Positions 14,349 to 60,575 of a DNA stretch of 64,000 bases are shown here, in pieces (the first letter of the stretch is position 1; each line of letters starts with the position of its first letter). A program made the translations under genes and the position numbers. The DNA is from Candidatus Moraniibacteriota bacterium (GTDB lineage Bacteria > Patescibacteriota > Minisyncoccia > Moranbacterales > UBA1568): positions 859,957 to 923,956 of the forward strand of contig CP064975.1 of assembly GCA_016699425.1 (NCBI GenBank), read 5' to 3'. Below the pieces are notes generated by a model. The model was not told where the DNA came from. It saw only the letters and a program-made list of their open reading frames with translations, and ran no database searches.

Positions 14349-14358
<10 letters not shown>

Positions 14359-15102: not shown

Positions 15103-15199
15103 ATCTCACTAACGTACAACCAACAACGTATAACCTCTAACAAGCATGCCCGACACACAAGTGTTCGGTTGTAGATTGTTTGTTACCAGTTAATTCCTG

Positions 15200-15272
15200 A
15201 GCCGAAGGCCGGGCTCGAACCGGCGACCCACGGTTTACAAAACCGTTGCTCTACCAACTGAGCTACTTCGGC
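15200..15272 (-). tRNA. tRNA-Thr (TGT)
   Basis: GCCGAAGTAGCTCAGTTGGTAGAGC, anticodon loop TTTGTAA. Confidence 0.85.
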
Positions 15273-26183: not shown

Positions 26184-26789
26184 CTATTTGCGGATACCCG
26201 CGACGAAACGCTTGAGCTCCGCCACTTTGTTTACAACCTCCTCATAAGGCCCCTCGAGGAACTCGATGAAGAACCGATCGAGCATATTCAGCCGGTAGTG
26301 CAGCTCTTCACTGTTCATGAGAACGAAGCGAATTTCTTTGCCGGCTTCTGCCTCGAGGAATGCAATGGCCTGACGGAGTTTGGTCCGGTTGATATTGTTT
26401 ACGACGAGGATCATGTCCACCTTGGATTTCGGATAGTTCAAAAAGAGGCCGCTGATGAGAATGAGCTTCACCTCGCCCACCGTCTTTAGTTTTCGAAAGA
26501 CCTGCGACTGCGCATTCACGTTCAGCTTCGAGACGAGTGTCTTCATCTCCAGATAGAACGGAAAGTCGGTATTGCTCACGTACGATTTCTTCCCCTGACG
26601 CGATTTTTCCGTGACGAACTTCATCTTGGCGAGCCGCTTCACTTCACGCAGCACATCATTTCTTGAAAGCAAGGTCTTTTCGGTGATGTCAGCAATCGAA
26701 AACTCGACTTCAGGATTCATGGTGAAGAAACGGATGAGACGAGCTCTCGGGCGAGATCCAAAGAGCGCTTCAAAGAGCGCGACAGACAT
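26184..26789 (-). CDS. hypothetical protein with N-terminal winged-helix-like segment
   Basis: ORF adjacent/coupled to rmuC; weak wHTH resemblance. Confidence 0.45.
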   Translation of the reverse strand: MSVALFEALFGSRPRARLIRFFTMNPEVEFSIADITEKTLLSRNDVLREVKRLAKMKFVTEKSRQGKKSYVSNTDFPFYLEMKTLVSKLNVNAQSQVFRKLKTVGEVKLILISGLFLNYPKSKVDMILVVNNINRTKLRQAIAFLEAEAGKEIRFVLMNSEELHYRLNMLDRFFIEFLEGPYEEVVNKVAELKRFVAGIRK

Positions 26790-26939: not shown

Positions 26940-29420
26940 ATGCGCTCACGCACCGACAGCCGGAGCAGCAAAGCCACTCCGGTCACGCTCGAGAAACACT
27001 TTAAAGAAATCGTCGTAGGAAGCGGCCGTTCCCAAGAACCGTATATCATCGCCTTCCACTACGCGAGCGACAATGTCTCGGGGTCTCCACTCGGGACGCT
27101 TTTTGGTTTCTTCGAAGTCGATATCCATGACCAAGACGCAGCCTATATCGTGAATTTCCTTGCTTCGGTCGCCAAGAAAGAATACTTTGCGAATTCACAT
27201 CGGAGCCCGGTCGAGAGTTTCGAAGTCGCGCTCCACAAGATCAATGTCGCGCTCGCTGAGATCGTCAAACATGGCAATGTCTCGTGGCTCGGTCACCTGC
27301 ACGGTGCCATCGGAACAATCAGCCAGAATACGCTCCATTTTTCCGTCACGGGTGACGGGCAACTGTATCTCGCCCGAGAAGAAGCACTCCGATTGATGAG
27401 CGATGGATTGGCTGATACCGACACTGAACCACATCCCCTGAAGACTTTCACCGAGGTCTCGAGCGGAGAACTATTCGATGCCGATATTGTCTTCGCATTC
27501 TCCCCCTCCGTCTGGTCGCTCTTCTCTCCCGACGATCTCCGCCGCAGCCTCAACCGACTCGGGCCAGCTGGTTTCGAGCAATTCCTCCGGACCGCACTCA
27601 TAAACGAGCTTCCCATCGCGGCTGTCACCCTGGTCACCTGTTCAGCACCCACCATACTGCAGTCCGAAGAGGCACCGAAAGAATCTCAAAAGCCGGCCGT
27701 CAGCCTCAGCAATGTCTGGAGTGGGAAACCGTTTGACGAAGCGCTCCAGAAAAGGAAGTCTCCGGATACTCCCAAGCAGAAACCCGATATCATCGAGACG
27801 CCGCGAGAAGAATACACCGACCAGAAAACTGGTCACATCTATCTCCAAGCTTCAGCCGAAGAAACTTTTGAGGAAAATGAGAGTCCTTGGAAAGAGCGCT
27901 GGGAGCTCTTTTCACACACGTTTGGAGCCAAGACACGCAACTGGGGTATCGCCCTCCGGAAAATCACGCGCCGCATCAGTAAAGTTGGCTCCCTCACCTT
28001 GGCCTCACTGGGCCAGCAAACAGGCCGCCTGAGCCGCTCACTCAATCGCCGCACTCGGAGCCTGAAGCGGGCCCTGGAAGAAAATCGACAAAGAAAGCGC
28101 CAAGAAAAAGAACAGATCGCGCGCCTCAAGGCGGTCGAGGAAGCTACTCGACCGAACATCGAACCGGAACCAGTGCCCGAAGAGGAAGTCGTCGTCCGAC
28201 CGGTCGCCTCCCTCATTGTGCCTTCACCTTCGAGCGAACCCGTGCCCCCTAAGGAAACTACTCCTCAATCATCTGAGCGCGTGCGCCGCTTTTTCACCCG
28301 TGAGCCGCGCCAGGAAATGACTTTCGGCAATGAAGCGAGGCAGCGGCTCACCCGATGGAGCGCGCGAATCGTGGCCTCCAAGTCTGTCTTGCTCCCGGCA
28401 CTCGGGAATATCAGGGCTGTCTCGAAAAACCTGGCGCTCCGAATCAACCAAGCCCTCCAGTCCTTGATCCATTACGGCCGGACACAGTGGGACAATGGCT
28501 CTGTGAAATACCGATGGATCTTCTCTGTCGGTGGAGTGATCGTCCTCGGCATCCTGGCGTACTTGATATGGCCAAGCACGGAAACACCGCCTGTGGAAAC
28601 CGTGACACCTACCCCTTCGCAGGAAGCCCCAGCTGCACCGGTTTTCCCACCCGCCGAGGAGCCACTCGCTACTCTGCTCGCTGGCAGTCGTCTCATCTTC
28701 CCGACCAACAACTCGCGTTCCATCGCTCTCGTCAACATCAACGACACCCCATTCCTCATCACCGAGAGAAGCATCGTCAATCTCCAGACGCAAGAATCGA
28801 CGACAGCCCCGGAAACGATCCGTCACGCGACAGCGATGGATGATCTCGATGCAATCTTCACCGTCGGGGAATCCGGGTCGCTCTCTCTCTGGAGTACGGT
28901 TACGAAGAAATTTGAAAAAAATACCCTCCCTCTGCCGGCCGGAGCGCAGGTATCGGCCATCGGTTCTTATCTGACCTATCTCTATGTCCTCGACCGAGAA
29001 GCCGGCATCATCCACCGTTTTCCGCGCGCCGAGGGCGGCTTCGGTCCCGCGACGACCTGGTCCAAAGAATCCGTCGCAACAGGTGAAGAGACATCTTTCG
29101 CGGTGCATGAAAACATCCTGCTCGGCGATGTGTCTGGCCAACCAGCACTCTACAGTCGCGGCAAAAACACCCACGTCGGCTTCACTGGACCGATCGCACC
29201 ACTCGCTCTCGATCAACTCGCCTTCGATACCCGCTCTGGTGATGTCCTCGCACTCGATCGAATAAACAAGCGCATCATCCGCTGGTCGGTCACCGGTACA
29301 CTCCTCGCTCAGTACTTCCATACTTCTTTCAACGAAGTCGAGGCCTTTGCTGTCTCGCCAGATGGAACAGAACTTCTCGTTTCACACCAAGGCGCTACTA
29401 CCGCTTGGCGGACACAATAG
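26940..29420 (+). CDS. large hypothetical bitopic membrane protein (826 aa)
   Basis: Single TM (VIVLGILAYLIW) near residue 520, Pro-rich linker, no known motifs; att-like repeat starts at its stop codon. Confidence 0.6.
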   Translation: MRSRTDSRSSKATPVTLEKHFKEIVVGSGRSQEPYIIAFHYASDNVSGSPLGTLFGFFEVDIHDQDAAYIVNFLASVAKKEYFANSHRSPVESFEVALHKINVALAEIVKHGNVSWLGHLHGAIGTISQNTLHFSVTGDGQLYLAREEALRLMSDGLADTDTEPHPLKTFTEVSSGELFDADIVFAFSPSVWSLFSPDDLRRSLNRLGPAGFEQFLRTALINELPIAAVTLVTCSAPTILQSEEAPKESQKPAVSLSNVWSGKPFDEALQKRKSPDTPKQKPDIIETPREEYTDQKTGHIYLQASAEETFEENESPWKERWELFSHTFGAKTRNWGIALRKITRRISKVGSLTLASLGQQTGRLSRSLNRRTRSLKRALEENRQRKRQEKEQIARLKAVEEATRPNIEPEPVPEEEVVVRPVASLIVPSPSSEPVPPKETTPQSSERVRRFFTREPRQEMTFGNEARQRLTRWSARIVASKSVLLPALGNIRAVSKNLALRINQALQSLIHYGRTQWDNGSVKYRWIFSVGGVIVLGILAYLIWPSTETPPVETVTPTPSQEAPAAPVFPPAEEPLATLLAGSRLIFPTNNSRSIALVNINDTPFLITERSIVNLQTQESTTAPETIRHATAMDDLDAIFTVGESGSLSLWSTVTKKFEKNTLPLPAGAQVSAIGSYLTYLYVLDREAGIIHRFPRAEGGFGPATTWSKESVATGEETSFAVHENILLGDVSGQPALYSRGKNTHVGFTGPIAPLALDQLAFDTRSGDVLALDRINKRIIRWSVTGTLLAQYFHTSFNEVEAFAVSPDGTELLVSHQGATTAWRTQ

Positions 29421-36326: not shown

Positions 36327-36764
36327 CTACAACTGGTCGATTGCGTTGCGCAATTCTGCCACCAGGGACTGAAGCTCGCCATCGGACATGATCGCTCGGA
36401 CACCATGCGCGTGGTCCAAGTCACCGAGACGGATATCAGGGATGAAGTGATAGTGAAGGTGTTCGACGCTCTTACCACTCCCCATCCCCTCCCGAACCAT
36501 GAGCGTAAAGCTATCATACCCGAGATAACGGAGAAGACGAGCACTCTGGTGAGCGAGGTCCTGGATATCGGCAAGCTCCTCCGGACTGAGTTGGAGGAAC
36601 GATTTTTTGTGCTCATTCGGGACGATCAGTAAGTGATGCTTGTGATACGGGGCCAGCGCGTACGTGACATAGGCGGTTTTGTTTTCGAAGAACCTACGGT
36701 CATCCGATGCACAAAACGGGCAGGTTCCTGGAGGCAATGCGTCGATATAATCAGAATATCTCAT
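36327..36764 (-). CDS. HIT-family hydrolase (second copy in window)
   Basis: HLHYHFIPD histidine triad; CPFC zinc motif at N-terminus. Confidence 0.75.
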   Translation of the reverse strand: MRYSDYIDALPPGTCPFCASDDRRFFENKTAYVTYALAPYHKHHLLIVPNEHKKSFLQLSPEELADIQDLAHQSARLLRYLGYDSFTLMVREGMGSGKSVEHLHYHFIPDIRLGDLDHAHGVRAIMSDGELQSLVAELRNAIDQL

Positions 36765-36813: not shown

Positions 36814-39306
36814 CTATACCTTGGCACCTTCGGCCATCTGCATGCGGGACATGATTTCCTGGTTCACAATCCGGGCATCGCGACCATAGCGCAGGCGCGA
36901 GAGTTCCTTCAAGGCGTTAGCGACTTCTTGGTCACCCGATGTCGGCGGGTAGGTCTTCAAATTGAACGGCTTGGTCAGCTCATTGTTCATGAGAAGCCGA
37001 GCGAAGGCCTGATAGTTATCGACGTTTACCATGTCGTGAGCCGTGAAGACCGGCGCAAACTGTTTCTCGAGAAACTCCGAGTCCTCGGGGCCAACCCGGA
37101 ACGCGACAAGCGAACCGACATTGCCGAAAACTGCCTTGGAGATCTCTTCCTTCAGCTGTCCGATGAATTGATGAGCAAGGATAAGGACGAGCCGATACTT
37201 GCGCGCCTCGGAAAGGATCTGTGCGATGGACGTCGTAGTCACATTCTGGAACTCATCGAGGTAGAGGTAGAAATCGCGTCGCTCGGCCTCGGGCTGATCG
37301 ACCCGCGACAGAGCCGCCATGAGGATCTTGCCGACGACGACCATACCGAGGAGCCGGGCATTGATCTCCCCGATCTTACCTTTGGAGAGGTTGATGAGGA
37401 CGATTTTCCCCTGATCCATAAGCTCGCGGAAGTTCAACGCACTTTCCTGCTGCGCGATGATCGGCCGCATCATGTCGTTACTGATGAAGGTGGTCAGTTT
37501 TGACGTGATGTACGGAACCATATTGGCGAGCGCCGCCTCGCCACCCGCCTTCTCGGCCTCCTTCAGCCAGAAGTCACGGACGATCGGGTTCGTGCAGTGG
37601 GCCAGTTTATAGCGTCGGAATTCCTCATCCGCCAAGACTTTCGGGATCTCCATGAGAGTCGATCCACTCTCGGGGTGCTCCATGATGAGGAGCATGGCGT
37701 TGCGCATATACTGCTCAAACATCGGGCCGCCCGTCGCCTTCATATCGTACAACTGGTCGAAGATGCCGATCATCTCATTGATGACGAAGGTCTTCTGCTC
37801 GGGGTGATTGGGATCGTACTCGAGCATATTTATACCGATCGGCCGGGCGATATCGGCTGGATCAAACACGATGACATCCTCGGCACGCTCCTTCGGGATG
37901 GCCGTCAGGATGTCTTCGATCGCATCCCCGTGCGGATCGATGAAACAGAAACCTTTGCCGGACCGAGCATCCTTCTTCGCCATCTCCTGTAGGTAATTCG
38001 ACTTCCCGACACCGGTCTGACCGATCACATACATGTGGCGGCGGCGATCATTGTCGGTGATGCGGATCTCTGTCTTGGCATTTCGGTAGTCGTTGAAGCC
38101 GAGGAGGAGCCCATCCTTCGGGACATTGATCGGTGGTGGTGCAGCACCCGCTTTCAACCATTTGATCTTCGGCGTCTCGGTGGTCGAGATCGGGAAGTGG
38201 AAGAAGCTGGCGACTTCATCCGAAGTGAGGACCATAGCCGAATCCGGATCGAAATTGCGGAAGATGTAATGATAGGCAGCTTTCTTCGATGAGATCCGCT
38301 TTTTGACGCGGAAGCTGTTCACTTCCGGATTCTCAAACTGAGAGAACGCGTTCTCCAGATGGCTCAGGATAGCTTCGGCACGAACCTTTGTCGCAGCAGA
38401 GGCGAGGAGACGGATATTCACTGAGAATGCCGCCTGGCTTGCTTTCGCGTCGATCGTCTTCACGAGTTCTTGTTCTTCAGGCGTCAATACCACCGGTTTT
38501 TTCTCTTCCTGACTTTGAGTCTTCGCGTCCTGTTGGAGTACCACACGGCCCACGCCCTGCAAGGCCGACTTGCCAACCATCGCTGCAAATGACTCCGGGT
38601 GAGCATCCTCAAGCCGCTTACCTTCCTGCATCTTTTGCGCGATATGCCGACTCCCCTTGCGCCAACCGATGGGGGCCGGAGCGAGCACGATTTGGATGGC
38701 AGCACCTTCCGACACCGTCTCCAGTTTCGACAGCGCATTGGAAATCTCATTCAAGGGGTCAACCAGGAGCGTCTTGTAGGTTTTCAGCGGAAGCGCGAAG
38801 CCAGCTGAGAGTTCAAGGAGCGAGACGGCTGTCTCCCCCGCCGGAGAAAAAATCGTGTAGTCCGGCACCTTCTCAATGGCCGACTGCGGGAAAAAACTGT
38901 GAATCTGCTTCTCGACACTTTCCCGATAGTGCTTCGGAACGGACAGATAAAAGAAGATTTCCTCGCTCGAGGACGGATTGGCGATCTCGAAGACGATATG
39001 TGGTGGCTCGAAGAAAATATGCTTCCACCACGGAAAATGCCGCTTGAGCGACGCGAGCGAGGTGAGGAGCTGATCCATCGCCCGGATTTCCTCCCGCCAC
39101 TCCTCGGCCGTGTGCGCGGTACCCTCGGCGACTTGCTTCTTGCTCACCTGGACAGTCTCGAGATCGAGATTGAGCGATTGCGAAACTTCAAACCGTATCA
39201 GGAGAAAACTCTTCACGACGAGGAAAATCCCCGAAACAAAAGCGAGTAGGCCCGAAAGGTATGCCAACGGAAGGAGCACGACATTCAAATCGAATTCGGA
39301 GAGCAT
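36814..39306 (-). CDS. type IV coupling protein-like ATPase (VirD4/TraG/TraD family)
   Basis: Two N-terminal TM; Walker A VIGQTGVGKSN; Walker B FYLYLDEFQN; LILAHQFIGQL motif typical of T4CP. Confidence 0.7.
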   Translation of the reverse strand: MLSEFDLNVVLLPLAYLSGLLAFVSGIFLVVKSFLLIRFEVSQSLNLDLETVQVSKKQVAEGTAHTAEEWREEIRAMDQLLTSLASLKRHFPWWKHIFFEPPHIVFEIANPSSSEEIFFYLSVPKHYRESVEKQIHSFFPQSAIEKVPDYTIFSPAGETAVSLLELSAGFALPLKTYKTLLVDPLNEISNALSKLETVSEGAAIQIVLAPAPIGWRKGSRHIAQKMQEGKRLEDAHPESFAAMVGKSALQGVGRVVLQQDAKTQSQEEKKPVVLTPEEQELVKTIDAKASQAAFSVNIRLLASAATKVRAEAILSHLENAFSQFENPEVNSFRVKKRISSKKAAYHYIFRNFDPDSAMVLTSDEVASFFHFPISTTETPKIKWLKAGAAPPPINVPKDGLLLGFNDYRNAKTEIRITDNDRRRHMYVIGQTGVGKSNYLQEMAKKDARSGKGFCFIDPHGDAIEDILTAIPKERAEDVIVFDPADIARPIGINMLEYDPNHPEQKTFVINEMIGIFDQLYDMKATGGPMFEQYMRNAMLLIMEHPESGSTLMEIPKVLADEEFRRYKLAHCTNPIVRDFWLKEAEKAGGEAALANMVPYITSKLTTFISNDMMRPIIAQQESALNFRELMDQGKIVLINLSKGKIGEINARLLGMVVVGKILMAALSRVDQPEAERRDFYLYLDEFQNVTTTSIAQILSEARKYRLVLILAHQFIGQLKEEISKAVFGNVGSLVAFRVGPEDSEFLEKQFAPVFTAHDMVNVDNYQAFARLLMNNELTKPFNLKTYPPTSGDQEVANALKELSRLRYGRDARIVNQEIMSRMQMAEGAKV

Positions 39307-39327
39307 GCTGTTTGTTTTTGTTGAATC

Positions 39328-39732
39328 CTATTCTCCTTGGATCAGCCCCTTCGCCTTCAGTGCTTCATAGAACCGGTCGGCGAGTTCGTCATGCATCGTG
39401 TCGAGGACATAGAAATCATTCAGCTTGCGAGCGACTGCTACAGCGTGGGCGACACCCTTCACTTGTGCGAGCTCGACGAGTTGCGTCACGCGACTCGCTG
39501 CATCCATCGCCTGACCCATTTGTGCTGCGTCCGTATCGATATCATCCGTCGCCGCCGCTGACTGAGGGCTCGACTGAGAGAGAATCGCGGCGTACTTTTC
39601 GTTCACCTGCTCCGCGACCCGTTCACCCGTCCGCTCGACAGCAGGCGCACCCTCGGCTCCTGGATGCGCCGGGACGATCGGTTCGGCAGCAACAATCGGC
39701 GTTTCTTTTTTTCGAGAGAGAAATTCCCACAT
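39328..39732 (-). CDS. hypothetical protein
   Basis: ORF in operon. Confidence 0.45.
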   Translation of the reverse strand: MWEFLSRKKETPIVAAEPIVPAHPGAEGAPAVERTGERVAEQVNEKYAAILSQSSPQSAAATDDIDTDAAQMGQAMDAASRVTQLVELAQVKGVAHAVAVARKLNDFYVLDTMHDELADRFYEALKAKGLIQGE

Positions 39733-39736
39733 AGCC

Positions 39737-40039
39737 TTAGGCAGTAGCCTTGATGTCTTTCTTGAACTGATCGACGATGTTTTGGACGAAGGCGCTGTAC
39801 TCCGGTATGCGCTCGTCGAGGAATTTCCCGACTGCCGCCTCGGATGGTGCCGTCTCGATGAGTGCTTCGTAGTCCGTCATCCCCTGTTCGCCGAGCCGCT
39901 CCATTGTTTCCATAAAGATGCGTTTCAGAAGTGCTTCGAGCATCTTGGCGAGGAGCTCTTCTTGCTTCGGCTTCGGCAAACCCGCGAGCGCGAGCGATTC
40001 GATGAGTTCCGCTTCGATTTTCGAGTAGTCGATATCCAT
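39737..40039 (-). CDS. hypothetical protein
   Basis: ORF in operon. Confidence 0.45.
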   Translation of the reverse strand: MDIDYSKIEAELIESLALAGLPKPKQEELLAKMLEALLKRIFMETMERLGEQGMTDYEALIETAPSEAAVGKFLDERIPEYSAFVQNIVDQFKKDIKATA

Positions 40040-40055
40040 AAGTATCTATTTTCTA

Positions 40056-43000
40056 TTAGTTTAGCATACGAAACCCGGGAATTTTCTTGCCTTCATGCCC
40101 CGCCAACGCCACGACACGGAGCACATACTCCTGGATCGACTCCCCGGTTCGGGCACGTGCGAGTTCAGTTCCGAATGTTTTCCCGGCTGCTTTCGAAAGT
40201 TTCGCGACCGTTTCCATCTGCGACCAGTGCAGTGGATTCTTCACCCGGTCATAAGATGAAAGCGGGTTCTTCACGAGTGCGTCGTGGTTCGACAACACAA
40301 CGGCTAGTTTCGCCTTCGCGAGTTCGGTCTGCGAAATCGGGTTGAAGTTCCGATCATACCCTTCAGTATTCATTACTTCATCCGTCAGAAAGATCTGCTC
40401 TGAGACATGTTTGAAGTTTCGGAAGATATCTTTCTGAGCGTCGGCTGGCAAGCTCTCGACATAGGTCATTACGTTGCCGGTCGGACTTAACAGTTCTGTT
40501 TCCGGACGAAGCTCCACAACGCCATCGACGGCATCATCCGAGACTATGACGGACTCGAGTCGACCAGCCGCACTGGCAGCTTGGCTTTCTTCAAAAGCCT
40601 TGACCAGACGTGGGTAAATGTCTCTGCCTCCCGCGGGTTTGCTCACAGTATCAGGTGTAATCCCGCCATCCTTCCCTGAAGATACATCGGCTGATGGTCC
40701 AGTTGGTGCCGCAACTTCGATCGGTGCACTACCCTTGGCTTCTTCGATAAGTTTGCTCATCTCATCTGCCGAGATGAGCTTGCCGATCTCGAGCTTGGCT
40801 CCCGCCTGGATATAGCTAGGAGAGAATTTCCCATCGGGACCCGCGACGAAACCGGCAGCGCGCGCCATATCCGGACTGGCATCGAGTTTCGCTTGCAGTT
40901 TCAACTCGACGAGTTTGGCAAACCGATCCGACGCACGCCGATCCATGTCCGGCACATCCTGGACCACACTCTTTGCCAGCTTCCAGATATTGTCACCGCG
41001 TTTCACCTCATGGGTCGAGAGGAAATCCTTCGCCTTCGGACTAACCTCTACACTTTGTCCGGCCGGGACTGCTGTTGCGACGGCTCCTGGCACCTCTGTC
41101 GCTGGTGACACGGAAGGGTTTGAAGTCACTTCACCGCCAGTCGGACCGCCGGCGACCGCACCCGCTCGAGTCTGTTCCACAACCGGCGCAGCTCCGGATG
41201 GAGGCGCCGCTGCATCAGATCCAGACTCTGAGACTGCTGCTGCCGGCACAGAAACAGCATCAGCTTTATCGACAAAAAACCCATGGGCGAAATGTGACGC
41301 CGCACCAGACCCTAGGACAACTCCTGCAAAGATCGCTCCTGATTTCCGGAGGAGTGCATTTCGTCGCCGTGCCCCTTCACCCCGCCGTGCCTTGGCTGCT
41401 TCGTCTTTCAAAAAAGCCTCGAGCAAGGAGAGATCCAATTTCCCGTCTCCTTCTTTCCCAGTAGCTATCGCCTCGACCGCTTTGGTCTCCACAGCATCTT
41501 CCATCTTCTGGAAAAACCCCGCCTGATCGGTTTCGACATTCACGCGCTTCTTCTCCCGACGACTGGCAGCATACTTGTCCATTCCAGCCTCAGCGACTAC
41601 AGCCAATCCTGCTCCGGCTGCAAGCCGTTTCAAAGCGAGGGCACCAATCGCGACCGATGCCACTCCTCCTGTGGCTGCCCCGAGCGCTACCGCCCCACCG
41701 ACAGTGACGGTCGCTGTCAAGAGATACTTGCCGTACTTCTTTGAGAACTCATTATTGGCCGTGCCAAGCTTTTCGATTCCTTGAACGGCCGCACCTCCCA
41801 TGATAGCCGACGCTCCAAGGAAATATTTGGCATAAGCCTTCCATTTCGCGGTCTTCTCACCTTCGACCTCTGCCTCCAGACTCCCGATAGTTTCCTTCCA
41901 GCGTGCATCTAACTTTTCCCCCAGCGGCTTCTTTTTCTGAACGTCACGCATCTCTTGCCGCGTTTTATAGATCTGGTCGCTCTCGTCGAACTGAACCTCG
42001 CAGATGAGTGACGCCATCTCGGGAGGAAGCTCCTGCACTGTCTTACCGGAATGCTTCAGCTTTTCGAGTTCCGCCGTCTGGAGCGCCAGGACCGCCTGGT
42101 CGTACGTGGAATGGAAGGCTCGGATATCATGATCATCGGACTCACGATGTCTCAGCGTACGAAATGTCTGCATCAGTTTCTTCCAGGTACTCCCTTGCGA
42201 TTCCTCGGCGACGATGAATGCCGTCCGCGCGGCCGTCACCGCTTCCCGGAGCTTGGCAATTTTAGCATCTTGCTCGGTCATGTCCGGCTTAGCTTCACCC
42301 TGTGCACCCAAGGGGGTGAGCGCCTCGACCGCCTGCCAACCCTCAGTCTGTGCCATTCTTTCCAGACCAGCTGCTCCCAAAGTACTAAAGCTCGAGTCAT
42401 CCTTTTCGTAGACCCAGTATTGATCCGATTTCTTTTCCACTCGTACCTCGCTCCCATTTGCCCTTCGGTAAGCGAGTTTGCTTCCAGCATCGAGAAGAAC
42501 GAGTGCCGCTGCGATATCCACCCCCTTCGGTATCGGTAGTGGTTCAGGCGTCGGCATTGGTTCAACTTTCGGGGCCACTGGCGGCTGTGGGAATGGCTCT
42601 GCTTGCGGGACCGTGGTCGCAGCATCTGGTTCGATCGGATCAGCTTTGGGTGTTGCCGCAGCCGCATCTGGACTCGGTGCCTGAGCCACCGGCACCGGGG
42701 TGGGTTCAATGTGTGGAGTCGCCACTGGTTCTACCGGCGCGACCATCTGGTGCAGACTATATCCATTGCCTATCAGCCCCTCAAGCCTTTTCAGCGTTAC
42801 TGTCTTTTCCTTGATATTTTCTCCCTTCGAACCATGGGTAGTTTCGATGATTTTTACCTTGTGAGCCTTTCCTGCATTGACCAATTCGATAATCCTGATT
42901 GTATGTTCTGACCGTCCACCTGAAGCCTTTTCCCAGACCTGACCCACGACAAAGCCCGAGGCTTCAACCACTCCTTCTATGGATGCCTTCGGTTCCACGA

Positions 43001-43823
43001 CGGCAGCCGGCGGAGTCGCTGCATGAAGTGCAGGCGCGGTAACGACATCGCTTTTTGTATCAGAAAGCTCTGCTAATTTTTCCAAATAGACCGTTTGGAT
43101 CTCAGCTTGCATTTCGTATGCCCCTTTCTCGACGGCCTTGGCAAAATGGGAACCCGTAGAAACAGCATATTTCCGCAAGAGAGCCTTTAAAGGTTTACCC
43201 ACAACAAAACATGGTACCGTGGTCCATCTGCCATTCCCACTAGCTTCATTTTTCAGGGAATACAGCTCAGACAAGGTATCCGCGGCCTTCATTCTCGCTA
43301 TCCAGTCATCCTTTTGTCGTGAGAGCTCGTCGAGTATTTCAGCGACTACCCTTTCCCGTGAGGCTTTCGCATCGATGTCTCCATCTAGTACCGAAGAAAC
43401 GACAGAGCTACCGTCACCTCTTCCTGGAGAATCTTTCTCTTCGTCTGGCTCTGCGACGCCGGGGGAAAGGCTCGGATCCGCGGCGTCTACTTCCCCTTCT
43501 TCGGGAAAAACGTCGAGTGCGTCTTCTGTGGAACGTCCGGCAACACGTGCATTCGCTGCCATTTCTCGCTCTGTTTTCTCTACTTGAGCCTGATCATACC
43601 CAAATGGACTCACATCCCTTTTATCCTCATCCAATTTTTCCAGGTATTCATCTATTTCCTTTTGAGTAGGCTCCTGCTGTACCGGTGGCACAGGATCCGC
43701 CACCGCAGGAGTAACGGTTTTTGATTCGATCGCAGCTAATTCCTCCGCCAGAAATTTATCGATTACCGCCTGAGCATTCGGCAGCGCCTCGACACTTCCA
43801 TTGATTGTGGGGTTTGGTTCCAT
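40056..43823 (-). CDS. giant (1255 aa) polytopic membrane protein with Pro-rich linkers and a LysM-like domain
   Basis: Gly/Ala-rich TM cluster mid-protein; HEVKRGDNIWKLAKSV LysM-like. Confidence 0.6.
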   Translation of the reverse strand: MEPNPTINGSVEALPNAQAVIDKFLAEELAAIESKTVTPAVADPVPPVQQEPTQKEIDEYLEKLDEDKRDVSPFGYDQAQVEKTEREMAANARVAGRSTEDALDVFPEEGEVDAADPSLSPGVAEPDEEKDSPGRGDGSSVVSSVLDGDIDAKASRERVVAEILDELSRQKDDWIARMKAADTLSELYSLKNEASGNGRWTTVPCFVVGKPLKALLRKYAVSTGSHFAKAVEKGAYEMQAEIQTVYLEKLAELSDTKSDVVTAPALHAATPPAAVVEPKASIEGVVEASGFVVGQVWEKASGGRSEHTIRIIELVNAGKAHKVKIIETTHGSKGENIKEKTVTLKRLEGLIGNGYSLHQMVAPVEPVATPHIEPTPVPVAQAPSPDAAAATPKADPIEPDAATTVPQAEPFPQPPVAPKVEPMPTPEPLPIPKGVDIAAALVLLDAGSKLAYRRANGSEVRVEKKSDQYWVYEKDDSSFSTLGAAGLERMAQTEGWQAVEALTPLGAQGEAKPDMTEQDAKIAKLREAVTAARTAFIVAEESQGSTWKKLMQTFRTLRHRESDDHDIRAFHSTYDQAVLALQTAELEKLKHSGKTVQELPPEMASLICEVQFDESDQIYKTRQEMRDVQKKKPLGEKLDARWKETIGSLEAEVEGEKTAKWKAYAKYFLGASAIMGGAAVQGIEKLGTANNEFSKKYGKYLLTATVTVGGAVALGAATGGVASVAIGALALKRLAAGAGLAVVAEAGMDKYAASRREKKRVNVETDQAGFFQKMEDAVETKAVEAIATGKEGDGKLDLSLLEAFLKDEAAKARRGEGARRRNALLRKSGAIFAGVVLGSGAASHFAHGFFVDKADAVSVPAAAVSESGSDAAAPPSGAAPVVEQTRAGAVAGGPTGGEVTSNPSVSPATEVPGAVATAVPAGQSVEVSPKAKDFLSTHEVKRGDNIWKLAKSVVQDVPDMDRRASDRFAKLVELKLQAKLDASPDMARAAGFVAGPDGKFSPSYIQAGAKLEIGKLISADEMSKLIEEAKGSAPIEVAAPTGPSADVSSGKDGGITPDTVSKPAGGRDIYPRLVKAFEESQAASAAGRLESVIVSDDAVDGVVELRPETELLSPTGNVMTYVESLPADAQKDIFRNFKHVSEQIFLTDEVMNTEGYDRNFNPISQTELAKAKLAVVLSNHDALVKNPLSSYDRVKNPLHWSQMETVAKLSKAAGKTFGTELARARTGESIQEYVLRVVALAGHEGKKIPGFRMLN

Positions 43824-43827
43824 AGTA

Positions 43828-45519
43828 CTAGGATTTGTTCACAGGTTCTGCTGCCATCAATTCTCCCATAAGTGTCTCCGTATCGGAAGAAGTAAGTTCA
43901 ATCTTGTCTATCACCCGCGGTATCTTTGCCAAGAGGAATGTTCTAAGTGCCTGTGAAATCTCTGGTGCACACTCCGCAGGATCTTTTTTGTTCGCCCGCA
44001 ATAGCCCTTCGAGACGAGAGACGAAGCCGGCCTTCAATAAGAATAGTTCTCGCCGCAATCGGCTCTGATCCGCCGAACGTTCCCACTCCGTCAAATCCTT
44101 GAGATCGGTGATCGGACGACCGGTTCGGAACTCTCTCACATTCGTCGTCGGCTCTGGCTCAACATGATCCGTGTCTGGCTGATCCTCCACCAGAGGAGGT
44201 GCTGTCACTGGATCAGACTGATCCGGCGCATCTGGCTCTCTTTGGGCATCAGCCTTAGCGGCAGCAGGCTCGGTGGCCACTGCAGCAGCAGCTGACTGGT
44301 CCTCGACAACCACTGGTTCTCCAACCGAGACGGCAGGTGCGGCTTCTGCCGATGCTCCAACTACAACTGGTTGAGGCGTCTCCTTTTCCAAAGCAACGAG
44401 CGTATCAGGTGATGTTTTTTTCCTTTCCTGCGCATCTCTCGACTTTTGCCACGTCTCACGCAATTTTGGCGCAGCTTTCTCCGCTTTCATGACCCACTTC
44501 TCCATTGGAACGAGTACATTTGTTTCAAAATGTACTCGTTTGTCGGCATTCCATTTCTTCGGATCAGTGCCCGATTTCAACCACTCTCCCGCTTTCATCA
44601 TCGGGAGATCACCCTTCCACCCCTTCCTGATTGCATGTAAGAGATAGTCTTTAGGAAATCCTGAATGAAGCGTCTTCCATCGTGCAGTGAGCTCCCCCAG
44701 CTTCGCGACTTTTTCCTCGATACTCTCACCAGGCTCAACTTCAACCGACTGCACTAATGGTCCGTCCTTACTCTTTTCCCCTTCCACATTTCTGCTCAAA
44801 GACACCGCGCTTCCCTCACGCCCTCGCCGTGACCCAGGTTTACGATCTTCTTCTCTTCCAACGGACGGGCGAGTAGGCTTCAAACTTGCAGCCTGACGAC
44901 TGTCTTTCGATTTTTCCTCTTGACGAGCCGATTCGATCGCTGCTTGGATCGCCTTGATATAGTCTTCAAAATTCACCTGGACCGTCCGGAGGGTATCAAT
45001 AGCATCCAAGTAAGCTGCCGAACGATTCACTTCCGATAAGTCTCCAGGTTCGAGATACGGTGCAATTGATTGCTTTGCCTTTTCAAGGTCGGCCCTGACG
45101 GAATCCTGGAAATTCTGACCATTGATATCCAGCTCTGCTTCAGGGTGTTCCAATGCCAAGGCCATTAAGAGGGTATGTGCCTTTTCAATATTGTCCATCA
45201 GTTCCTGAGGATTGTGTCCTTTCTCGTTTCGACCCTCCACCTGTGTCTCAACCGAAACTAAGGTCGACGTCTCAGCCCACGTTCCCAAACCGCCCCGATG
45301 ATGGATTGCCCGTCCTGAAACTGGTCCACCTTTCCCTTCACGCTTTTCCCTCTCCGGTTTCCCTTCTGGTGCTCTCCGTCCTGATTTACTGTCAGCCGAA
45401 AGAACCGAATCAACAACTTTCGGTTCCTCTACGCTTGGAGCCTTGAGGATCACTCGTCCCGCAATCGCTCCCTTCAATTTTTCTGCAAATGGACTAGCCA
45501 CCAGCTCTGCCATAATCAC
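43828..45519 (-). CDS. hypothetical protein (563 aa, soluble, charged)
   Basis: ORF, first gene of operon. Confidence 0.5.
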   Translation of the reverse strand: MIMAELVASPFAEKLKGAIAGRVILKAPSVEEPKVVDSVLSADSKSGRRAPEGKPEREKREGKGGPVSGRAIHHRGGLGTWAETSTLVSVETQVEGRNEKGHNPQELMDNIEKAHTLLMALALEHPEAELDINGQNFQDSVRADLEKAKQSIAPYLEPGDLSEVNRSAAYLDAIDTLRTVQVNFEDYIKAIQAAIESARQEEKSKDSRQAASLKPTRPSVGREEDRKPGSRRGREGSAVSLSRNVEGEKSKDGPLVQSVEVEPGESIEEKVAKLGELTARWKTLHSGFPKDYLLHAIRKGWKGDLPMMKAGEWLKSGTDPKKWNADKRVHFETNVLVPMEKWVMKAEKAAPKLRETWQKSRDAQERKKTSPDTLVALEKETPQPVVVGASAEAAPAVSVGEPVVVEDQSAAAAVATEPAAAKADAQREPDAPDQSDPVTAPPLVEDQPDTDHVEPEPTTNVREFRTGRPITDLKDLTEWERSADQSRLRRELFLLKAGFVSRLEGLLRANKKDPAECAPEISQALRTFLLAKIPRVIDKIELTSSDTETLMGELMAAEPVNKS

Positions 45520-56716: not shown

Positions 56717-57589
56717 TCAAAGCTGATTCGCTATCTTCTGTTGTAGTTTCCTCCCATTCCCCCACCCAAGCATTCCGAGGTACGAAGCTACTGTTTCTTC
56801 TTTTCCTCCAGTGGCCTCCACTCGTCGCAGCATCCGCCGCTTCGTCACCGTCCGGAGTACTCGGTGATCCGAGAAATGCACCCAGCCGAGGAAATCCACT
56901 CCGCTTGCGACAGTTCTGATGAACACCTTGTCGGGGTGGAGCTCGAGTCGAAGATTGAGTCTGAGAAACGCATCCATCAGAATGAGTATATTTTTCAACT
57001 CATTTTCATTCTTGGAAAATACGACGAAATCATCTGCATACCGGATGTAATATTTCGCTTTCAGTTGCTGTTTCACAAACTGGTCGAGCTCGTTGAGATA
57101 GATATTGATGAGGAGTTGCGAAGTCAAATTGCCAAGCGGAAGCCCTCGGCCAGGTGTCCCCGAATCAAAGCTGGTGATGACTCTTTCCAGCAGCCAGAGC
57201 GTATCGGGATCAGCGATGTGTTTTTTGAGGATACCTATGAGCACACCCTGGTCGACCGAGGCGAAGCATTTCCTGATATCGCCCTTCAGCACCCAGACCG
57301 TCCGAGTGTGATTGTTCGAGACCTTCCGACCAAATGTCCGAAAACGATTGAGGGCTCGGTGTACTCCCTTCCCAATCCGACACGAATACGAATCAGCGAT
57401 GAAGGTCCGGTCAAAGCATGGATAGAGGGTACGATAGATCGCATGATGAAGGAGTCGGTCTCGCACTGACGCCTTGTGGATATCTCGCGGTTTCGGATCA
57501 TTCACCCTGAAGGCCTGGTATGGGCCGTGCGTATAGGTTCTCGTCTTGAGTGATTCATGGAGAGCGATCAGATGATCCATGAGATGCAA
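56717..57589 (-). CDS. DGR reverse transcriptase (track ORF from TTG; conserved N-terminal motifs continue in frame upstream to ~57725 through a G9 tract)
   Basis: YADD box (YIRYADDFVVF); DGR-specific LPLGNLTSQLLINIY; TYTHGPY; upstream in-frame IISIDNLLLAWTEFKRGKTKKR matches DGR RT N-terminus. Confidence 0.88.
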   Translation of the reverse strand: MHLMDHLIALHESLKTRTYTHGPYQAFRVNDPKPRDIHKASVRDRLLHHAIYRTLYPCFDRTFIADSYSCRIGKGVHRALNRFRTFGRKVSNNHTRTVWVLKGDIRKCFASVDQGVLIGILKKHIADPDTLWLLERVITSFDSGTPGRGLPLGNLTSQLLINIYLNELDQFVKQQLKAKYYIRYADDFVVFSKNENELKNILILMDAFLRLNLRLELHPDKVFIRTVASGVDFLGWVHFSDHRVLRTVTKRRMLRRVEATGGKEETVASYLGMLGWGNGRKLQQKIANQL

Positions 57590-57742
57590 TTCAAACTCCT
57601 GGACGTCTCTCTTCTTGGTTTTTCCCCGTTTGAACTCGGTCCAGGCGAGGAGAAGGTTATCGATGGAAATGATATCATCATAGGTGATATCTAATTTCCT
57701 TTTCTTCGCATATGCCTCAAATGACGCCCCCCCCCGAAGCTC

Positions 57743-58087
57743 TTGCCGATTCTTGAGAAACTAAAGATTGCATACGCTTTGTGGTATAGCTTTTTGCTTA
57801 TCCTACCAAAAACCCATCGGCATTCGCTCGGATCGAGAATTGATGATTTGTTTGTTGAGACAATCGAGGGAATAGCCACCGCAGCTTTTCTCTCGCCAGT
57901 GGAGAAACTTCCCTATGTGAAGTATGGGGTGAGAAAGCTCGACACCCTCAAGATACTCCTCATGATCCTCTGGGAGACCAAGTCACTGGATGACAAGAAA
58001 TATATCGCTCTTTCGGAGAGACTGAATGAGATAGGCAGAATGCTCGGCGGCTGGCAAGGACAGCTCCAAAAGAAAACTCTCCCGTAG
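57743..58087 (+). CDS. avd: DGR accessory variability determinant (Avd); TTG start right after C9 tract
   Basis: PKTHRHSLGSRIDD and C-terminal NEIGRMLGGWQGQLQKK match Avd four-helix-bundle family hallmarks. Confidence 0.8.
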   Translation: MPILEKLKIAYALWYSFLLILPKTHRHSLGSRIDDLFVETIEGIATAAFLSPVEKLPYVKYGVRKLDTLKILLMILWETKSLDDKKYIALSERLNEIGRMLGGWQGQLQKKTLP

Positions 58088-58106
58088 AAGGAGAGAATGA
58101 AGAGAC

Positions 58107-58260
58107 TGGCGAGACGGGGAACGCGAAGGCTCCATCATCGTTCCAGTTGTTGCCCGGGTTATCGTAGTAGGCATTCACCTGCTGCCCATCGTCGTTACGG
58201 TTCGATTCGAGGATGTTCGGGTTACCGTCGGAAATGTATATTCTGCCACCTATACCACCA
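58107..58260 (-). repeat. DGR template repeat (TR), Asn-codon rich
   Basis: ~150-bp copy of target 3' end; 19 of ~23 mismatches are TR-adenines (coding sense); reads NAYYDNPGNNWNDDGAFAFPVS. Confidence 0.85.
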
Positions 58261-58627
58261 CCCGTTGACTACTCGCCGGGTTGAATCGTATCCGGTATCT
58301 CCAATACCTTAGCAGAATAGACCAAGTATCTTCATTTTTTAACCCTTCAACTTGCTCAGGGTCATCCTGAGTCTTTTATCGAAGGATGAAGTGTCTGCAC
58401 AAGCCACTCTCTTTGAAGCCGTAATCGCAAAGACTCTCGGCTTGTGGATACTGGATTCGGCCGCGGAAAACCGTAGTCGCCCGCAGATTCGCTTACTACC
58501 AATTTCAGTATATCAAAATAATAAATTTGAAGAAAATGTAAACCCCGCACTACCGTTCGGTAAAATGCGGGGCCCAAGGACTAAGTATCAAGGGTCTAAG
58601 AGACCAAAGGTACAGAGTCCGAAGTGC

Positions 58628-59335
58628 TTATTGCGAGACGGGGAACGCGAAGGCTCCATCATCGTGCCAGTAGTGGCCCGGGTAAGCGCAGTAGGCAAGC
58701 AGCTGCTGCCCAACGACGTACCGGTACGAAGCGAGGAAGTCCGGGCTACCGTCGGAATCGATGATGGGTTCGTGGGGCACGGCGACGTAGTAGATGCCCC
58801 AGCGCTCCAGTTGCTCATCAGAAATCGCTTCCCGGATGAGGAGTGCCAGTTCACCGCGGAGGTCATTAGACTTCCCGTAGTCGCGCTCACCCCTTGCCCG
58901 TAGGTTGGCAGTAGTGCGCTCGGTATCGGTATCGAACTCCTTCTTGCCGAACAAGAGCGCAACGGTGTATTGCTTACCCGGCTCCAAGCGATGCTTCTCG
59001 TTGTAGTCGGGCTTGCCGAGGATATCTCTCGCCCATTTGGTGAAGTTCATCCCGCCAGTTTCGCCGTGTTTGGACCACTCCTCATTCGTCCAGCCACGGC
59101 CGGTCAGAGTGACGAGGATACGGCCGTGCTTGTCGGTCTTGTAAAGCGGGCCGAGGCCGAGGAGCTTGCGGAACTCGTCACGCGGCGGAATAGTTCCCGC
59201 CACGCAAGCTTCCGCGATATCCGCGATCCTGCCTTCGCCCAGGAGCTTATCTTGCCAGAGCTCCGGGGTGACGCCTTTTTGCAGGAGAGTGTCGTGAAGC
59301 TTCGTAACTTGCGGGAATGAAATAGAGGTGCACAT
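58628..59335 (-). CDS. DGR target (variable) protein, VR at C-terminus
   Basis: 235-aa ORF; C-terminal ...LLAYCAYPGHYWHDDGAFAFPVSQ corresponds to TR; small hairpin gggtctaagagacc and terminator downstream. Confidence 0.8.
   Translation of the reverse strand: MCTSISFPQVTKLHDTLLQKGVTPELWQDKLLGEGRIADIAEACVAGTIPPRDEFRKLLGLGPLYKTDKHGRILVTLTGRGWTNEEWSKHGETGGMNFTKWARDILGKPDYNEKHRLEPGKQYTVALLFGKKEFDTDTERTTANLRARGERDYGKSNDLRGELALLIREAISDEQLERWGIYYVAVPHEPIIDSDGSPDFLASYRYVVGQQLLAYCAYPGHYWHDDGAFAFPVSQ
58630..58785 (-). repeat. DGR variable repeat (VR)
   Basis: Aligned to TR with adenine-specific substitutions. Confidence 0.85.
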
Positions 59336-59697: not shown

Positions 59698-60318
59698 CTA
59701 TGCTTCGCTCAGACTGAAGTTCATCAACATCTTCTTTATATCTTCATCGTTTTTTTCAAAACCCGGGCGATACATCACCGCTTCGGAATAATCGACATCA
59801 TCAAAGTAAGCAAGCTGCGAACGGAAATTCTTTTCATTGAACTCTTCGCCGAAAATACTCTCCGCTCTGTCGGCGATTTCCCGTAACGAATGCCTCGTCT
59901 CCAAAATGAAACAAATGTCGACATAATCCTTCCATTTCGCTCTCCTGCCAAGCGCGTAGGCCTTCATCGATGCGAGTGTGAGAAGCTCCGGCAATCGGGC
60001 GGTGTCATCCCAGAGGACGGGGTATTCGAGAGCGAACGGGTATCGGAGAAACGTGAGCTTCACGCCGTCCGTGAGTACCGTATATTCTTCCGGGGTATCG
60101 ACGAGCGTCCGGATATTCTTTCCGAAAGCGATGATGTCTCGCCGGAGCGCATCGGTACGAAGAGGTTCCGCGGTGAAGAGATCGAAGTCGATGGATGCGC
60201 GGTGTCCGATATGGAGAGCTATCGCCGTCCCGCCCACCAGACCGAAATCAGTGCGAAACTTCTGCAGAAGCGGAAGTAAGGTCTTCTGTTGTTCCGAAAG
60301 AATGTCAGCGTGCAGCAT
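59698..60318 (-). CDS. nucleotidyltransferase, AbiEii/AbiGii toxin family (type IV TA)
   Basis: LVGGTAIALHIGHRASIDFDLFT motif; start chosen at MLHADIL; track ORF extends to 60462. Confidence 0.7.
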   Translation of the reverse strand: MLHADILSEQQKTLLPLLQKFRTDFGLVGGTAIALHIGHRASIDFDLFTAEPLRTDALRRDIIAFGKNIRTLVDTPEEYTVLTDGVKLTFLRYPFALEYPVLWDDTARLPELLTLASMKAYALGRRAKWKDYVDICFILETRHSLREIADRAESIFGEEFNEKNFRSQLAYFDDVDYSEAVMYRPGFEKNDEDIKKMLMNFSLSEA

Positions 60319-60575
60319 GGCGGGCAAAGTAGAGATCGAAATAGTGAGCAATAGCGGGGCGGTAGTTATTTCTCTTGCCTTTCCTTTGGGAAAAATACAC
60401 TTCGGCCACCCTCTGTATCCCGAGCAGTGCAATAAGCGCCCGGACATCACGCCAATCCCCATAATTTAGGGTATGCTCGACAATCGAAGCTTCGGATAGG
60501 CGTGAGGCATCGTTGACATACCACACGAGGTGCGGTCGGGACTGGATAAAGGCACTCAACGCAGTACTCTGCCTC
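60305..60575 (-). CDS. putative cognate antitoxin/partner (90 aa) of AbiEii-like gene
   Basis: C-terminal 90 codons of ORF 60305..60886 from MRQSTAL; 10-nt spacing to toxin start; family not recognised. Confidence 0.4.

Follow-up and report, generated by a model that had tools for sequence, protein, structure and literature searches.

A chromosomal DUF8128 ATPase with a coupling protein-like motor and the linked small protein p134 form a widespread two-part module in Patescibacteria

Why does a bacterial chromosome carry an ATPase that resembles type IV coupling proteins (T4CPs) in an operon with neither a VirB4 nor a relaxase nor a pilin gene? This question is raised by a five-gene operon of Candidatus Moraniibacteriota bacterium, which lies in a 64,000-nt stretch of contig CP064975.1 (positions 859,957 to 923,956; hereafter the window, i.e., the whole stretch of DNA analyzed). 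The core of this locus is a widespread two-part chromosomal module of the Patescibacteria, composed of a membrane-associated ATPase with a DUF8128 domain and a T4CP-type motor and of a 134-aa protein, here named p134.

The five open reading frames (ORFs) of the operon are co-directional on the (-) strand, running from 45519 to 36814. They encode products of 563, 1255, 100, 134, and 830 aa and are spaced by 4-21 nt, in agreement with the five-gene operon proposed by an initial annotation made from the sequence alone. A promoter/terminator scan gave nothing above chance. The features of the operon are:
43828..45519 (-), gene of the 563-aa protein, operon gene 1, GTG start, product without transmembrane segment
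40056..43823 (-), gene of the 1255-aa membrane protein (ORF list, hydropathy)
41274..41834 (-), Gly/Ala-rich hydrophobic (transmembrane) cluster, residues ~664-850 of the 1255-aa protein (Kyte-Doolittle and sequence reading)
40779..41012 (-), LysM-like motif, residues ~938-1015 of the 1255-aa protein (sub-threshold Pfam LysM match)
39737..40039 (-), gene of the 100-aa DUF5663 protein (Pfam PF18908)
39328..39732 (-), gene of the 134-aa protein p134 (domain-restricted iterated profile)
36814..39306 (-), gene of the 830-aa ATPase with DUF8128 and T4CP-like P-loop domains (Pfam, profiles, structural model)
39172..39288 (-), N-terminal membrane helix of the ATPase, residues ~7-45 (hydropathy and structural model)
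38113..39171 (-), DUF8128 domain of the ATPase, residues 46-398 (precomputed PF26449 and Foldseek)
36817..38112 (-), P-loop motor domain of the ATPase, residues 399-830 (Pfam, structural model, superposition)
37999-38022 (-), Walker A motif of the ATPase
37243-37272 (-), Walker B/DEFQN motif of the ATPase
37168-37185 (-), AHQ motif of the ATPase

The motifs which the initial annotation had read as T4CP-like (Walker A and B, LDEFQN, AHQ) were all present in the 830-aa protein. Walker A (GQTGVGKS) occupies residues 429-436, Walker B/LDEFQN residues 679-688 and LILAHQ residues 708-713, and the key residues were invariant in an alignment of 29 diverse homologues (30-49% identical to the query). 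The profile searches proposed in the same annotation gave a divided result. The protein passed the Pfam cut-offs for TrwB_AAD_bind (PF10412, 33.0 bits, cut-off 20.5) and TraG-D_C (PF12696, 25.6 bits, cut-off 22), as well as for DUF87 (27.8 bits, cut-off 23.2), but remained below that for T4SS-DNA_transf (PF02534, 17.4 vs 20.1 bits), and neither VirB6 nor TrbL was matched in the 1255-aa protein. The NCBIfam TraD/TraG/VirD4 subfamily models scored far under their cut-offs for the ATPase (e.g., 32 bits vs 366). A profile of the ATPase family searched against the PDB sequences matched TrwB (E 3.7e-8), DotL (4.1e-5), and HerA (0.009), with no VirB4 among the matches.

The full-length ATPase was modeled with AlphaFold2 (AF2; mean predicted local distance difference test, pLDDT, of 86 from the 29-sequence alignment). 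The model predicts a helix at residues 7-45, corresponding to the single N-terminal hydrophobic segment detected by hydropathy (residues 5-42), an alpha/beta domain at residues 46-398 and a P-loop domain with an all-alpha insert at ~503-617 that is highly conserved in the homologue alignment. The modeled motor half superposed best on TrwB (target-normalized score TMt 0.62-0.69, root mean square deviation 4.1-5.5 Å, 16-18% identity, ~410-440 columns). Assignment of the 830-aa protein to the T4CP branch within the FtsK/HerA/VirB4/VirD4 superfamily is thus supported. The initial annotation had named FtsK/SpoIIIE and HerA as identities that would overturn its reading. FtsK/SpoIIIE was rejected because the Pfam families of the motor, the gamma domain, and the four-helix N-terminus (PF01580, PF09397, PF13491) had no match in the protein, which possesses one membrane helix only. 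HerA was rejected because the N-terminal domain matches VirB4 and not HerA (see below) and the HerA match of the family profile is weaker than that of TrwB; a NurA-like gene is not present beside the ATPase.

More than one third of the ATPase consists of the DUF8128 domain, a VirB4-like N-terminal domain that the initial annotation had overlooked. The DUF8128 (PF26449) assignment is a precomputed annotation which the local Pfam scan did not report; it is attached to the identical protein (P0001) and, with one exception, to the other 119 homologues listed, and it also appears in the gene tables. When a domain-only AF2 model of residues 46-398 (pLDDT 85.6) was compared with the PDB by Foldseek, all 14 matches at E<=1e-3 were TrwK/VirB4 chains (best E 2.6e-7, probability 1.00, query-normalized score TMq 0.39-0.47), and the next non-VirB4 match had an E-value of 0.015. 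A profile of this domain found no match among the PDB sequences, so that the signal comes from structure comparison only. Since the fold of DUF8128 matches VirB4 only and the family profile matches TrwB and DotL, the ATPase appears as a hybrid, in which the models join a VirB4-type N-terminal domain to a T4CP-type motor.

The same comparisons bring up a second identity, that of a divergent VirB4-type assembly ATPase, anchored by its helix in the manner of a VirB3-VirB4 fusion, which would energize pilus/pilin extraction or channel assembly. The best Foldseek E-values of the full-length model (5e-15) belong to TrwK/VirB4 chains and the N-terminal domain matches the corresponding region of VirB4 only; moreover, a transmembrane helix followed by a VirB4-like N-terminal domain and an ATPase is a layout resembling VirB3-VirB4 fusions. 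However, the sequence profiles placed the motor with TrwB and DotL, and the Pfam family CagE_TrbE_VirB had no match in the protein. The gene order around plasmid-borne relatives also speaks against it. A tblastn search of plasmids with the ATPase returned 332 records, and full-length matches covering DUF8128 and the motor (22-29% identity, query residues ~37-825) were found on plasmids of Bacillus, Embleya/Streptomyces, and haloarchaea. On two Bacillus subtilis plasmids (NZ_OX419581.1 and NZ_CP032854.1) the homologue, annotated as DUF87 or type IV secretion system (T4SS) conjugative DNA transfer family, is immediately followed by a replication-relaxation protein; genes for a conjugal transfer protein, for TcpE and for a VirB4-like ATPase distinct from the homologue lie further downstream, and one of the two plasmids encodes TcpD as well. 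The Embleya plasmid NZ_CP108778.1 shows the order PrgI, XF1762, VirB4-like ATPase, homologue (E 1e-63), replication-relaxation protein, and NlpC/P60. The profile built from the family of the candidate phyla radiation (CPR) matched the Bacillus plasmid homologues with E-values of 1.6e-85 and 3.7e-76 (5.1e-34 and 2.7e-27 with the profile of the N-terminal domain alone), but gave no match at E<=10 to the VirB4-like ATPases of the same plasmids (L085 and L086). Because the profile finds the relaxase-adjacent ATPase and not the VirB4-like one, the nearest non-CPR relatives hold the slot of the coupling protein, beside a separate VirB4. A VirB4-type assembly ATPase is therefore considered quite unlikely. 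To judge from these sequences, the most likely ancestor of the ATPase is the T4CP of a monoderm conjugative element of the mating-pair formation type FATA (MPF-FATA), or one like it, which fits the published MPF-FATA origin of the Patescibacteria T4SS (PMC12102498). Full-length homologues with DUF8128 and ATPase domains were also encoded by the Bacillus/Geobacillus phages G, CP-51, JL, Shanette, and TP-84; that of phage G is gp156 (JN638751.1, 90997-93159), and the phage members correspond to phrog_5156 (E 8.9e-90).

In order to assess the breadth of the family, an exhaustive HMMER search was performed and cluster representatives were counted by E-value, yielding 21,933 at E<=1e-3 and 5,795 at E<=1e-30. 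The 80 best genome loci, with one genome per species, were all from Patescibacteria, namely Moran-, Uhr-, Falkow-, Komeili-, Nomura-, Taylor-, Zambryski-, Doudna-, Portnoy-, and Azambacteria as well as Paceibacteria. ORFs were called in 84 loci for neighbor analysis, and the linkage of p134 and DUF5663 was scored there with domain-restricted iterated profiles. p134 is an acidic helical protein of 134 aa without match in Pfam, NCBIfam, PADLOC, and PHROGs. In ~24 loci it has a gene of its own, placed directly before that of the ATPase, and in ~28 loci it forms an N-terminal domain fused to the ATPase, giving proteins of ~910-970 aa and one of 1164 aa. The membrane helix was missing in all of these fused ATPases, in which p134 abuts DUF8128 within ~10 residues, and was present in all unfused homologues with a complete N-terminus. 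Among 150 cluster representatives, 89 were of the membrane-helix type and 16 of the p134-fused type, and one further fused protein kept a hydrophobic segment. On account of this Rosetta-stone fusion we take p134 to be a dedicated partner of the ATPase, as far as sequence can tell. Across the Patescibacteria p134 alone is associated with the ATPase, either as an adjacent gene or as a fused domain; no other universal neighbor, and in particular no universally linked membrane channel partner, was found in the loci. The synteny comparison suggested in the initial annotation thus bore out a five-gene operon in this lineage, whose members share the surrounding gene order, but not the proposal that the five genes form a minimal apparatus, as only p134 stays with the ATPase more widely.

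The 100-aa protein encoded directly upstream of p134 is likewise acidic and helical (isoelectric point 4.5) and belongs to DUF5663 (PF18908, E 1.4e-6, 29.2 bits, cut-off 23.7). DUF5663 occurred in 13 of the 84 loci; in those of Moranbacteria-like type its gene immediately precedes p134, and in a few Paceibacteria (e.g., L026, L065, and L073) it is found elsewhere in the locus. The plasmid loci L085-L088 contain no counterpart of either p134 or DUF5663. Paralogy of p134 and DUF5663 was rejected (hhalign probability 0.5%), as was homology of p134 to a ~165-aa upstream protein (cluster c11) of Uhr/Falkow-type loci (hhalign probability 0.3%). A 255-aa neighbor (cluster 0) was dismissed as a linked partner, being methionine aminopeptidase-like. 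In addition, two loci (L094, 2273-7985; L095, 424-6136) were found to carry tandem DUF8128 ATPase paralogues of 806 and 994 aa, which are 33% identical to each other, overlap in their start/stop codons, and have a 102-aa ORF ahead. This arrangement may indicate that the two paralogues of a genome work together.

Conservation was compared between the window proteins and those of four relatives (L090, L089, L001, and L004). The identities are:
ATPase: L090 93%, L089 90%, L001 72%, L004 76%
RmuC: L090 84%, L089 87%, L001 53%, L004 52%
DUF5663 protein: L090 88%, L089 76%, L001 38%, L004 43%
p134: L090 66%, L089 58%, L001 40%, L004 47%
826-aa protein: L090 57%, L089 57%, L001 31%, L004 37%
1255-aa protein (C-terminal part only): L090 49%, L089 45%, L001 none, L004 22%
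563-aa protein (fragments only): L090 34%, L089 37%, L001 none, L004 none
The ATPase was among the best-conserved genes of the ~25-kb syntenic block and is under strong purifying selection. A 201-aa protein without Pfam domain, encoded directly upstream of RmuC (26184-26789, (-)), is conserved like the ATPase (92-95% and 74% identity) and matches the PADLOC candidate-defense family PDC-M05A (E 3.7e-18).

The operon lies among housekeeping genes. The window encodes RpoA, S4, S2, UppS, RF1/PrmC, RmuC, a MraY-like GT4, a FtsQ-like protein, HolB, MreB, MurA, and MurD. In Moranbacteria with ATPases 72-93% identical to that of the window, the conserved order is FtsQ-like, two divergent PMT_2 genes, the large protein(s), DUF5663, a ~140-aa gene and the ATPase, followed by a convergent ~800-aa gene, the 201-aa gene, RmuC, and GT4. 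Paceibacteria show the order L15-SecY-Adk-Map-[fused ATPase]-Ndk, and in other lineages DnaX or GyrB lies downstream of the ATPase. No relaxase or other T4SS gene was found beside the ATPase in any of the 80 Patescibacteria loci, and no VirB4, relaxase, pilin, or integrase family among the ~55 window ORFs scanned; the initial annotation was correct in reporting VirB4, relaxase, and pilin as missing. Two further genes flank the operon on its downstream side:
36327..36764 (-), HIT-family hydrolase, co-directional sixth gene (PF01230, E 5.6e-12), 49 nt downstream of the ATPase
26940..29420 (+), gene of an 826-aa protein with a single transmembrane segment (residues 524-547) and without known domain
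The HIT gene is kept in L089 and L090 (79-83% identity) and absent from L001 and L004; since it follows the ATPase in close relatives only, it is probably a passenger. The 826-aa protein had no Pfam match even at E<=10. Its homologues occur in 11 Moranbacteria-like loci, convergent to the ATPase and usually directly after it, with a few at a distance of one to three genes.

In the window the 826-aa gene is parted from the ATPase by a block of low GC content (0.433), which extends from 29534 to ~36200 between the HIT gene and the 826-aa gene. It encodes a PF20603 hydrolase, an HTH_3 regulator, thioredoxins, a DsbD-thioredoxin fusion, an APH-type kinase, a serine hydrolase, and an AAA_33/zeta-like kinase. 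This block immediately downstream would suit an operon belonging to an integrated conjugative or mobilizable element or to a defense island of HerA- or MADS-like type, as would the weak PADLOC matches on the P-loop half of the ATPase (mad8, 3.4e-14; HerA, 3e-4) and the relatives on plasmids and phages. However, at the position of the block close relatives, whose flanking genes are 80-93% identical, have one or two unrelated small genes only, and the block holds no integrase, relaxase, or T4SS gene. It is thus regarded as an unrelated acquired insertion. The GC content of the operon (0.541) equals that of its host (0.529 for the whole window), the locus and its flanks are kept across Moranbacteria, no tRNA gene borders the locus, and the other operon proteins have no PADLOC match. 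A mobile or defense element is therefore highly improbable. Its flanks consist of housekeeping genes in conserved synteny, and the locus is therefore no integrative and conjugative element, but is chromosomally fixed and vertically inherited. The initial reading of a host-like GC content and no obvious recent conjugative element accordingly holds for the operon and its conserved flanks, although not for the acquired low-GC island downstream.

Homologues of this kind are on record. A survey of 3,035 Patescibacteria genomes reported 5,713 VirD4-like T4CP homologues in 2,918 of them, only 148 of these homologues being near virB4, and VirB4 itself in 2,417 genomes (Quinonero-Coronel et al., 2025, PMC12102498). 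The suggestion that such an apparatus had not been described for CPR-like bacteria is thereby overturned. The organism itself is a CPR bacterium, as the initial annotation had supposed, the 830-aa protein being 100% identical to one annotated in Candidatus Moraniibacteriota. The Patescibacteria T4SS was described there as MPF-FATA-derived, VirB4-centered and relaxase-less, and its authors stated that exaptation cannot be excluded, since a Southlakia T4CP homologue is non-essential. The T4SS cluster of Southlakia has no recognizable coupling protein or relaxase (Wang et al., 2023, PMC10633639). Table S1 of PMC10633639 lists two T4CP-like proteins outside the T4SS cluster of Southlakia epibionticum, SEML1_0142 and SEML1_0293, and gives transposon sequencing (Tn-seq) scores at three time points. 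SEML1_0293 (921 aa) was non-essential throughout (NE/NE/NE). SEML1_0142 (1019 aa, P-loop from ~residue 381), flagged as a core and Patescibacteria-enriched family, was essential throughout (ES/ES/ES), as were primase, RpoD, and GyrB. SEML1_0141 (139 aa), encoded 13 nt upstream of SEML1_0142, showed a growth defect and then essentiality (GD/ES/ES). The 2025 survey cites the non-essential homologue only, and the 2023 Table S1 scores SEML1_0142 and SEML1_0141 as essential. The gene order of SEML1_0138-0145, i.e., opposite-strand YifB, two small ORFs, ATPase, and GyrB, recurs in the metagenomic locus L093, whose 997-aa ATPase carries DUF8128 and is 37% identical to that of the window. By this synteny, SEML1_0142 probably belongs to the DUF8128 ATPase family. 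The synteny together with the Tn-seq scores makes it very probable that at least one member of the family is essential in Southlakia, the only Patescibacterium with genome-wide Tn-seq.

What, then, does the module do? In the reading that we prefer, to which we would give even chances, the T4CP-derived ATPase acts together with p134 as a receptor or motor for a T4SS encoded elsewhere in the genome. The ATPase would assemble into a ring on the cytoplasmic side of the membrane, like TrwB and VirB4, and serve as an ATP-driven receptor or motor that feeds or energizes the domesticated, relaxase-less T4SS, with p134 as a putative adaptor or regulator. DUF5663 and the fast-evolving giant upstream proteins would then be accessories or cargo specific to the Moranbacteria lineage and not parts of a universal machine. 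Several observations weigh against this reading. Because no T4SS gene is present in the window or in the 80 loci, the coupling to a T4SS is drawn only from ancestry, and the excess of genomes with T4CP homologues over those with VirB4 indicates that some genomes seem to keep the ATPase without a T4SS. The substrate of a classical T4CP is missing, as there is no relaxase, and the full-length members in Bacillus phages mean that the fold is not tied to conjugation. There are about two ATPase paralogues per genome, and the Southlakia paralogue SEML1_0293 is dispensable; the window ATPase could be the orthologue of either this one or the essential SEML1_0142. Finally, the small ORFs upstream of the Saccharibacteria-like L093 homologue, and of the L094 tandem pair, gave no match to the p134 or DUF5663 profiles.

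Some of the same observations would be expected if the ATPase and p134 had been exapted as a T4SS-independent housekeeping translocase and had taken on a separate essential function in the envelope or with nucleic acids. Such a function might consist in exporting or inserting large surface proteins, or in handling DNA in connection with replication or uptake, and the 1255-aa protein would be an example of a lineage-specific membrane partner. The presence of the family in more genomes than VirB4, the constant position of the ATPase among housekeeping genes (SecY/Adk/Map/Ndk, DnaX, HolB/FtsQ, GyrB), and its rank among the best-conserved genes of the neighborhood are in line with this. Moreover, the strong conservation of the all-alpha insert points to a partner or substrate that does not vary, one paralogue is essential at three Tn-seq time points like primase, RpoD, and GyrB, and exaptation was raised by PMC12102498 itself. 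On the other hand, no membrane channel partner is universally linked, p134 being the only constant neighbor. The status of a core gene does not discriminate, since the Patescibacteria T4SS is also chromosomal, core, and essential, and T4CPs are commonly encoded away from virB4. Furthermore, Southlakia possesses a separate canonical essential FtsK, which argues against an FtsK-replacement role of the ATPase there. Exaptation as a housekeeping translocase is thus a tentative explanation, on the doubtful side of even.

A more specific proposal is that the ATPase and p134 constitute an essential, Patescibacteria-wide secretion or translocation motor independent of the VirB4 T4SS, in which p134 and DUF5663 would act as chaperone-like adaptors handing over large, fast-evolving envelope proteins, of which the 563-aa and 1255-aa products would be examples, for export or insertion at the host-contact surface. 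We regard it as unlikely; if true, a conjugation ATPase would have given rise to a new route of protein export.

Both large upstream proteins evolve very quickly. The 563-aa protein is acidic and, as the initial annotation had stated, soluble, no transmembrane segment being present. It had no match in Pfam, NCBIfam, PADLOC, and PHROGs, aligned over only 14-35% of its length, at 34-37% identity, in relatives with 90-93% identical ATPases, and has no homologue in the more distant Moranbacteria. It is thus, by sequence, a lineage-specific and very fast-evolving protein. The 1255-aa protein consists of an acidic, Pro-rich N-terminal region of ~660 aa, a hydrophobic cluster, and a C-terminal region of ~400 aa. 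Kyte-Doolittle segments were detected at residues 708-744 and further hydrophobic stretches were read at 664-683 and 828-850. On the basis of the charge distribution and the absence of a signal peptide, the protein probably has a large cytoplasmic N-terminal region, two to four transmembrane helices and an exterior region of ~400 aa. The Pro-rich spacers and the Gly/Ala-rich transmembrane cluster described initially were therefore recovered, but the LysM assignment was not sustained. The LysM-like stretch (HEVKRGDNIWKLAKS ... IQAGAKLEIG) scored 17.2 bits against a cut-off of 20.9 with Pfam LysM PF01476 (E 0.005, profile positions 1-16 of 43); a split LysM with an insert of ~50 aa is possible.

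Only four homologues of the 1255-aa protein were found among 5.8 billion proteins, conserved over residues 378-1255, and an iterated profile placed a family member directly upstream of DUF5663, p134, and the ATPase in 11 Moranbacteria-like loci. No significant match was obtained in Pfam, NCBIfam, PADLOC, and PHROGs, and a VirB6 reading was left unsupported by the absence of a Pfam VirB6 or TrbL match. In one related locus (L092, 6001-15003) a 1000-aa member of the ATPase family is convergent to a 1710-aa TrbL_3 (VirB6-like) protein, the sole T4SS-type neighbor among the related loci; this protein is unrelated to the 1255-aa and 826-aa proteins. To judge from their distribution, the 1255-aa family is confined to Moranbacteria-like loci, as DUF5663 mostly is, and both are lineage-specific. 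One may speculate that the 1255-aa, 563-aa, and DUF5663 proteins together represent a lineage-specific accessory or cargo.

Other elements of the window were noted. Five tRNA genes (Glu, Trp, Thr, Tyr, Thr) lie at 13557-15272 (-) and are unrelated to the operon. A diversity-generating retroelement (DGR) at 56717-59335 (-) comprises an RVT_1 reverse transcriptase (56717..57589) and a pair of 125-nt repeats with 85% identity. The candidate template repeat is located at 58109-58233 and the variable repeat at 58633-58757, at the 3' end of a 235-aa ORF (59335..58628), and at ~17 of the 19 mismatched positions the template copy has an adenine. DGRs are common in CPR bacteria. An AbiEii-type nucleotidyltransferase toxin ORF (59698-60462, (-)) adjoins this region.

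The Patescibacteria account for much of bacterial diversity and cannot grow epibiotically without their T4SS, for whose coupling step no recognizable protein was reported in the T4SS cluster of Southlakia. The orphan T4CP homologues are shown here to constitute a distinct architectural class, with a predicted VirB4-like N-terminal domain, a T4CP-like motor, and a partner revealed by fusion. SEML1_0141, SEML1_0142, and SEML1_0293 are concrete targets for studying how a domesticated conjugation machine works without DNA transfer, and the hybrid VirB4/VirD4 architecture bears on the divergence of the two T4SS ATPases.

Compared with known systems, the window ATPase is a case of the same kind as the orphan Patescibacteria T4CP homologues of PMC12102498, which are likewise T4CP-like, present in about two copies per genome and located away from the virB4 cluster. 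These homologues are already known; their VirB4-like N-terminal domain and fusion-defined partner are undescribed. Neither PMC12102498 nor PMC10633639 describes this domain, p134 and its fusion, or the Moranbacteria-specific upstream genes, and in the searchable literature no papers on DUF8128 or DUF5663, nor a description of the hybrid VirB4/T4CP architecture, were found.

The plasmid DUF87 ATPases share with the window ATPase a DUF8128-like N-terminal domain and a T4CP-like P-loop domain, but have neither the membrane helix nor a p134 domain and carry a C-terminal extension of ~120-150 aa. They adjoin genes for a relaxase and for VirB4, TcpD, TcpE, or PrgI, whereas the window ATPase is a chromosomal core gene without such neighbors. 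TrwB of R388, VirD4 and DotL resemble it in having a P-loop domain with an all-alpha insert and an N-terminal membrane anchor. Classical T4CPs usually possess two transmembrane helices, have no VirB4-like N-terminal domain of ~350 aa and work with a relaxosome. In contrast, the window ATPase has one helix, such a domain of ~350 aa and no relaxase or T4SS neighbors. With VirB4/TrwK, finally, it shares the order of an N-terminal domain followed by a C-terminal ATPase and the fold match of DUF8128, but it differs in lacking a VirB4 signal at the sequence level and in the T4CP-type insert and motifs of its motor. Where VirB4 has its VirB3 partner, the window ATPase family has its own membrane helix or the p134 domain.

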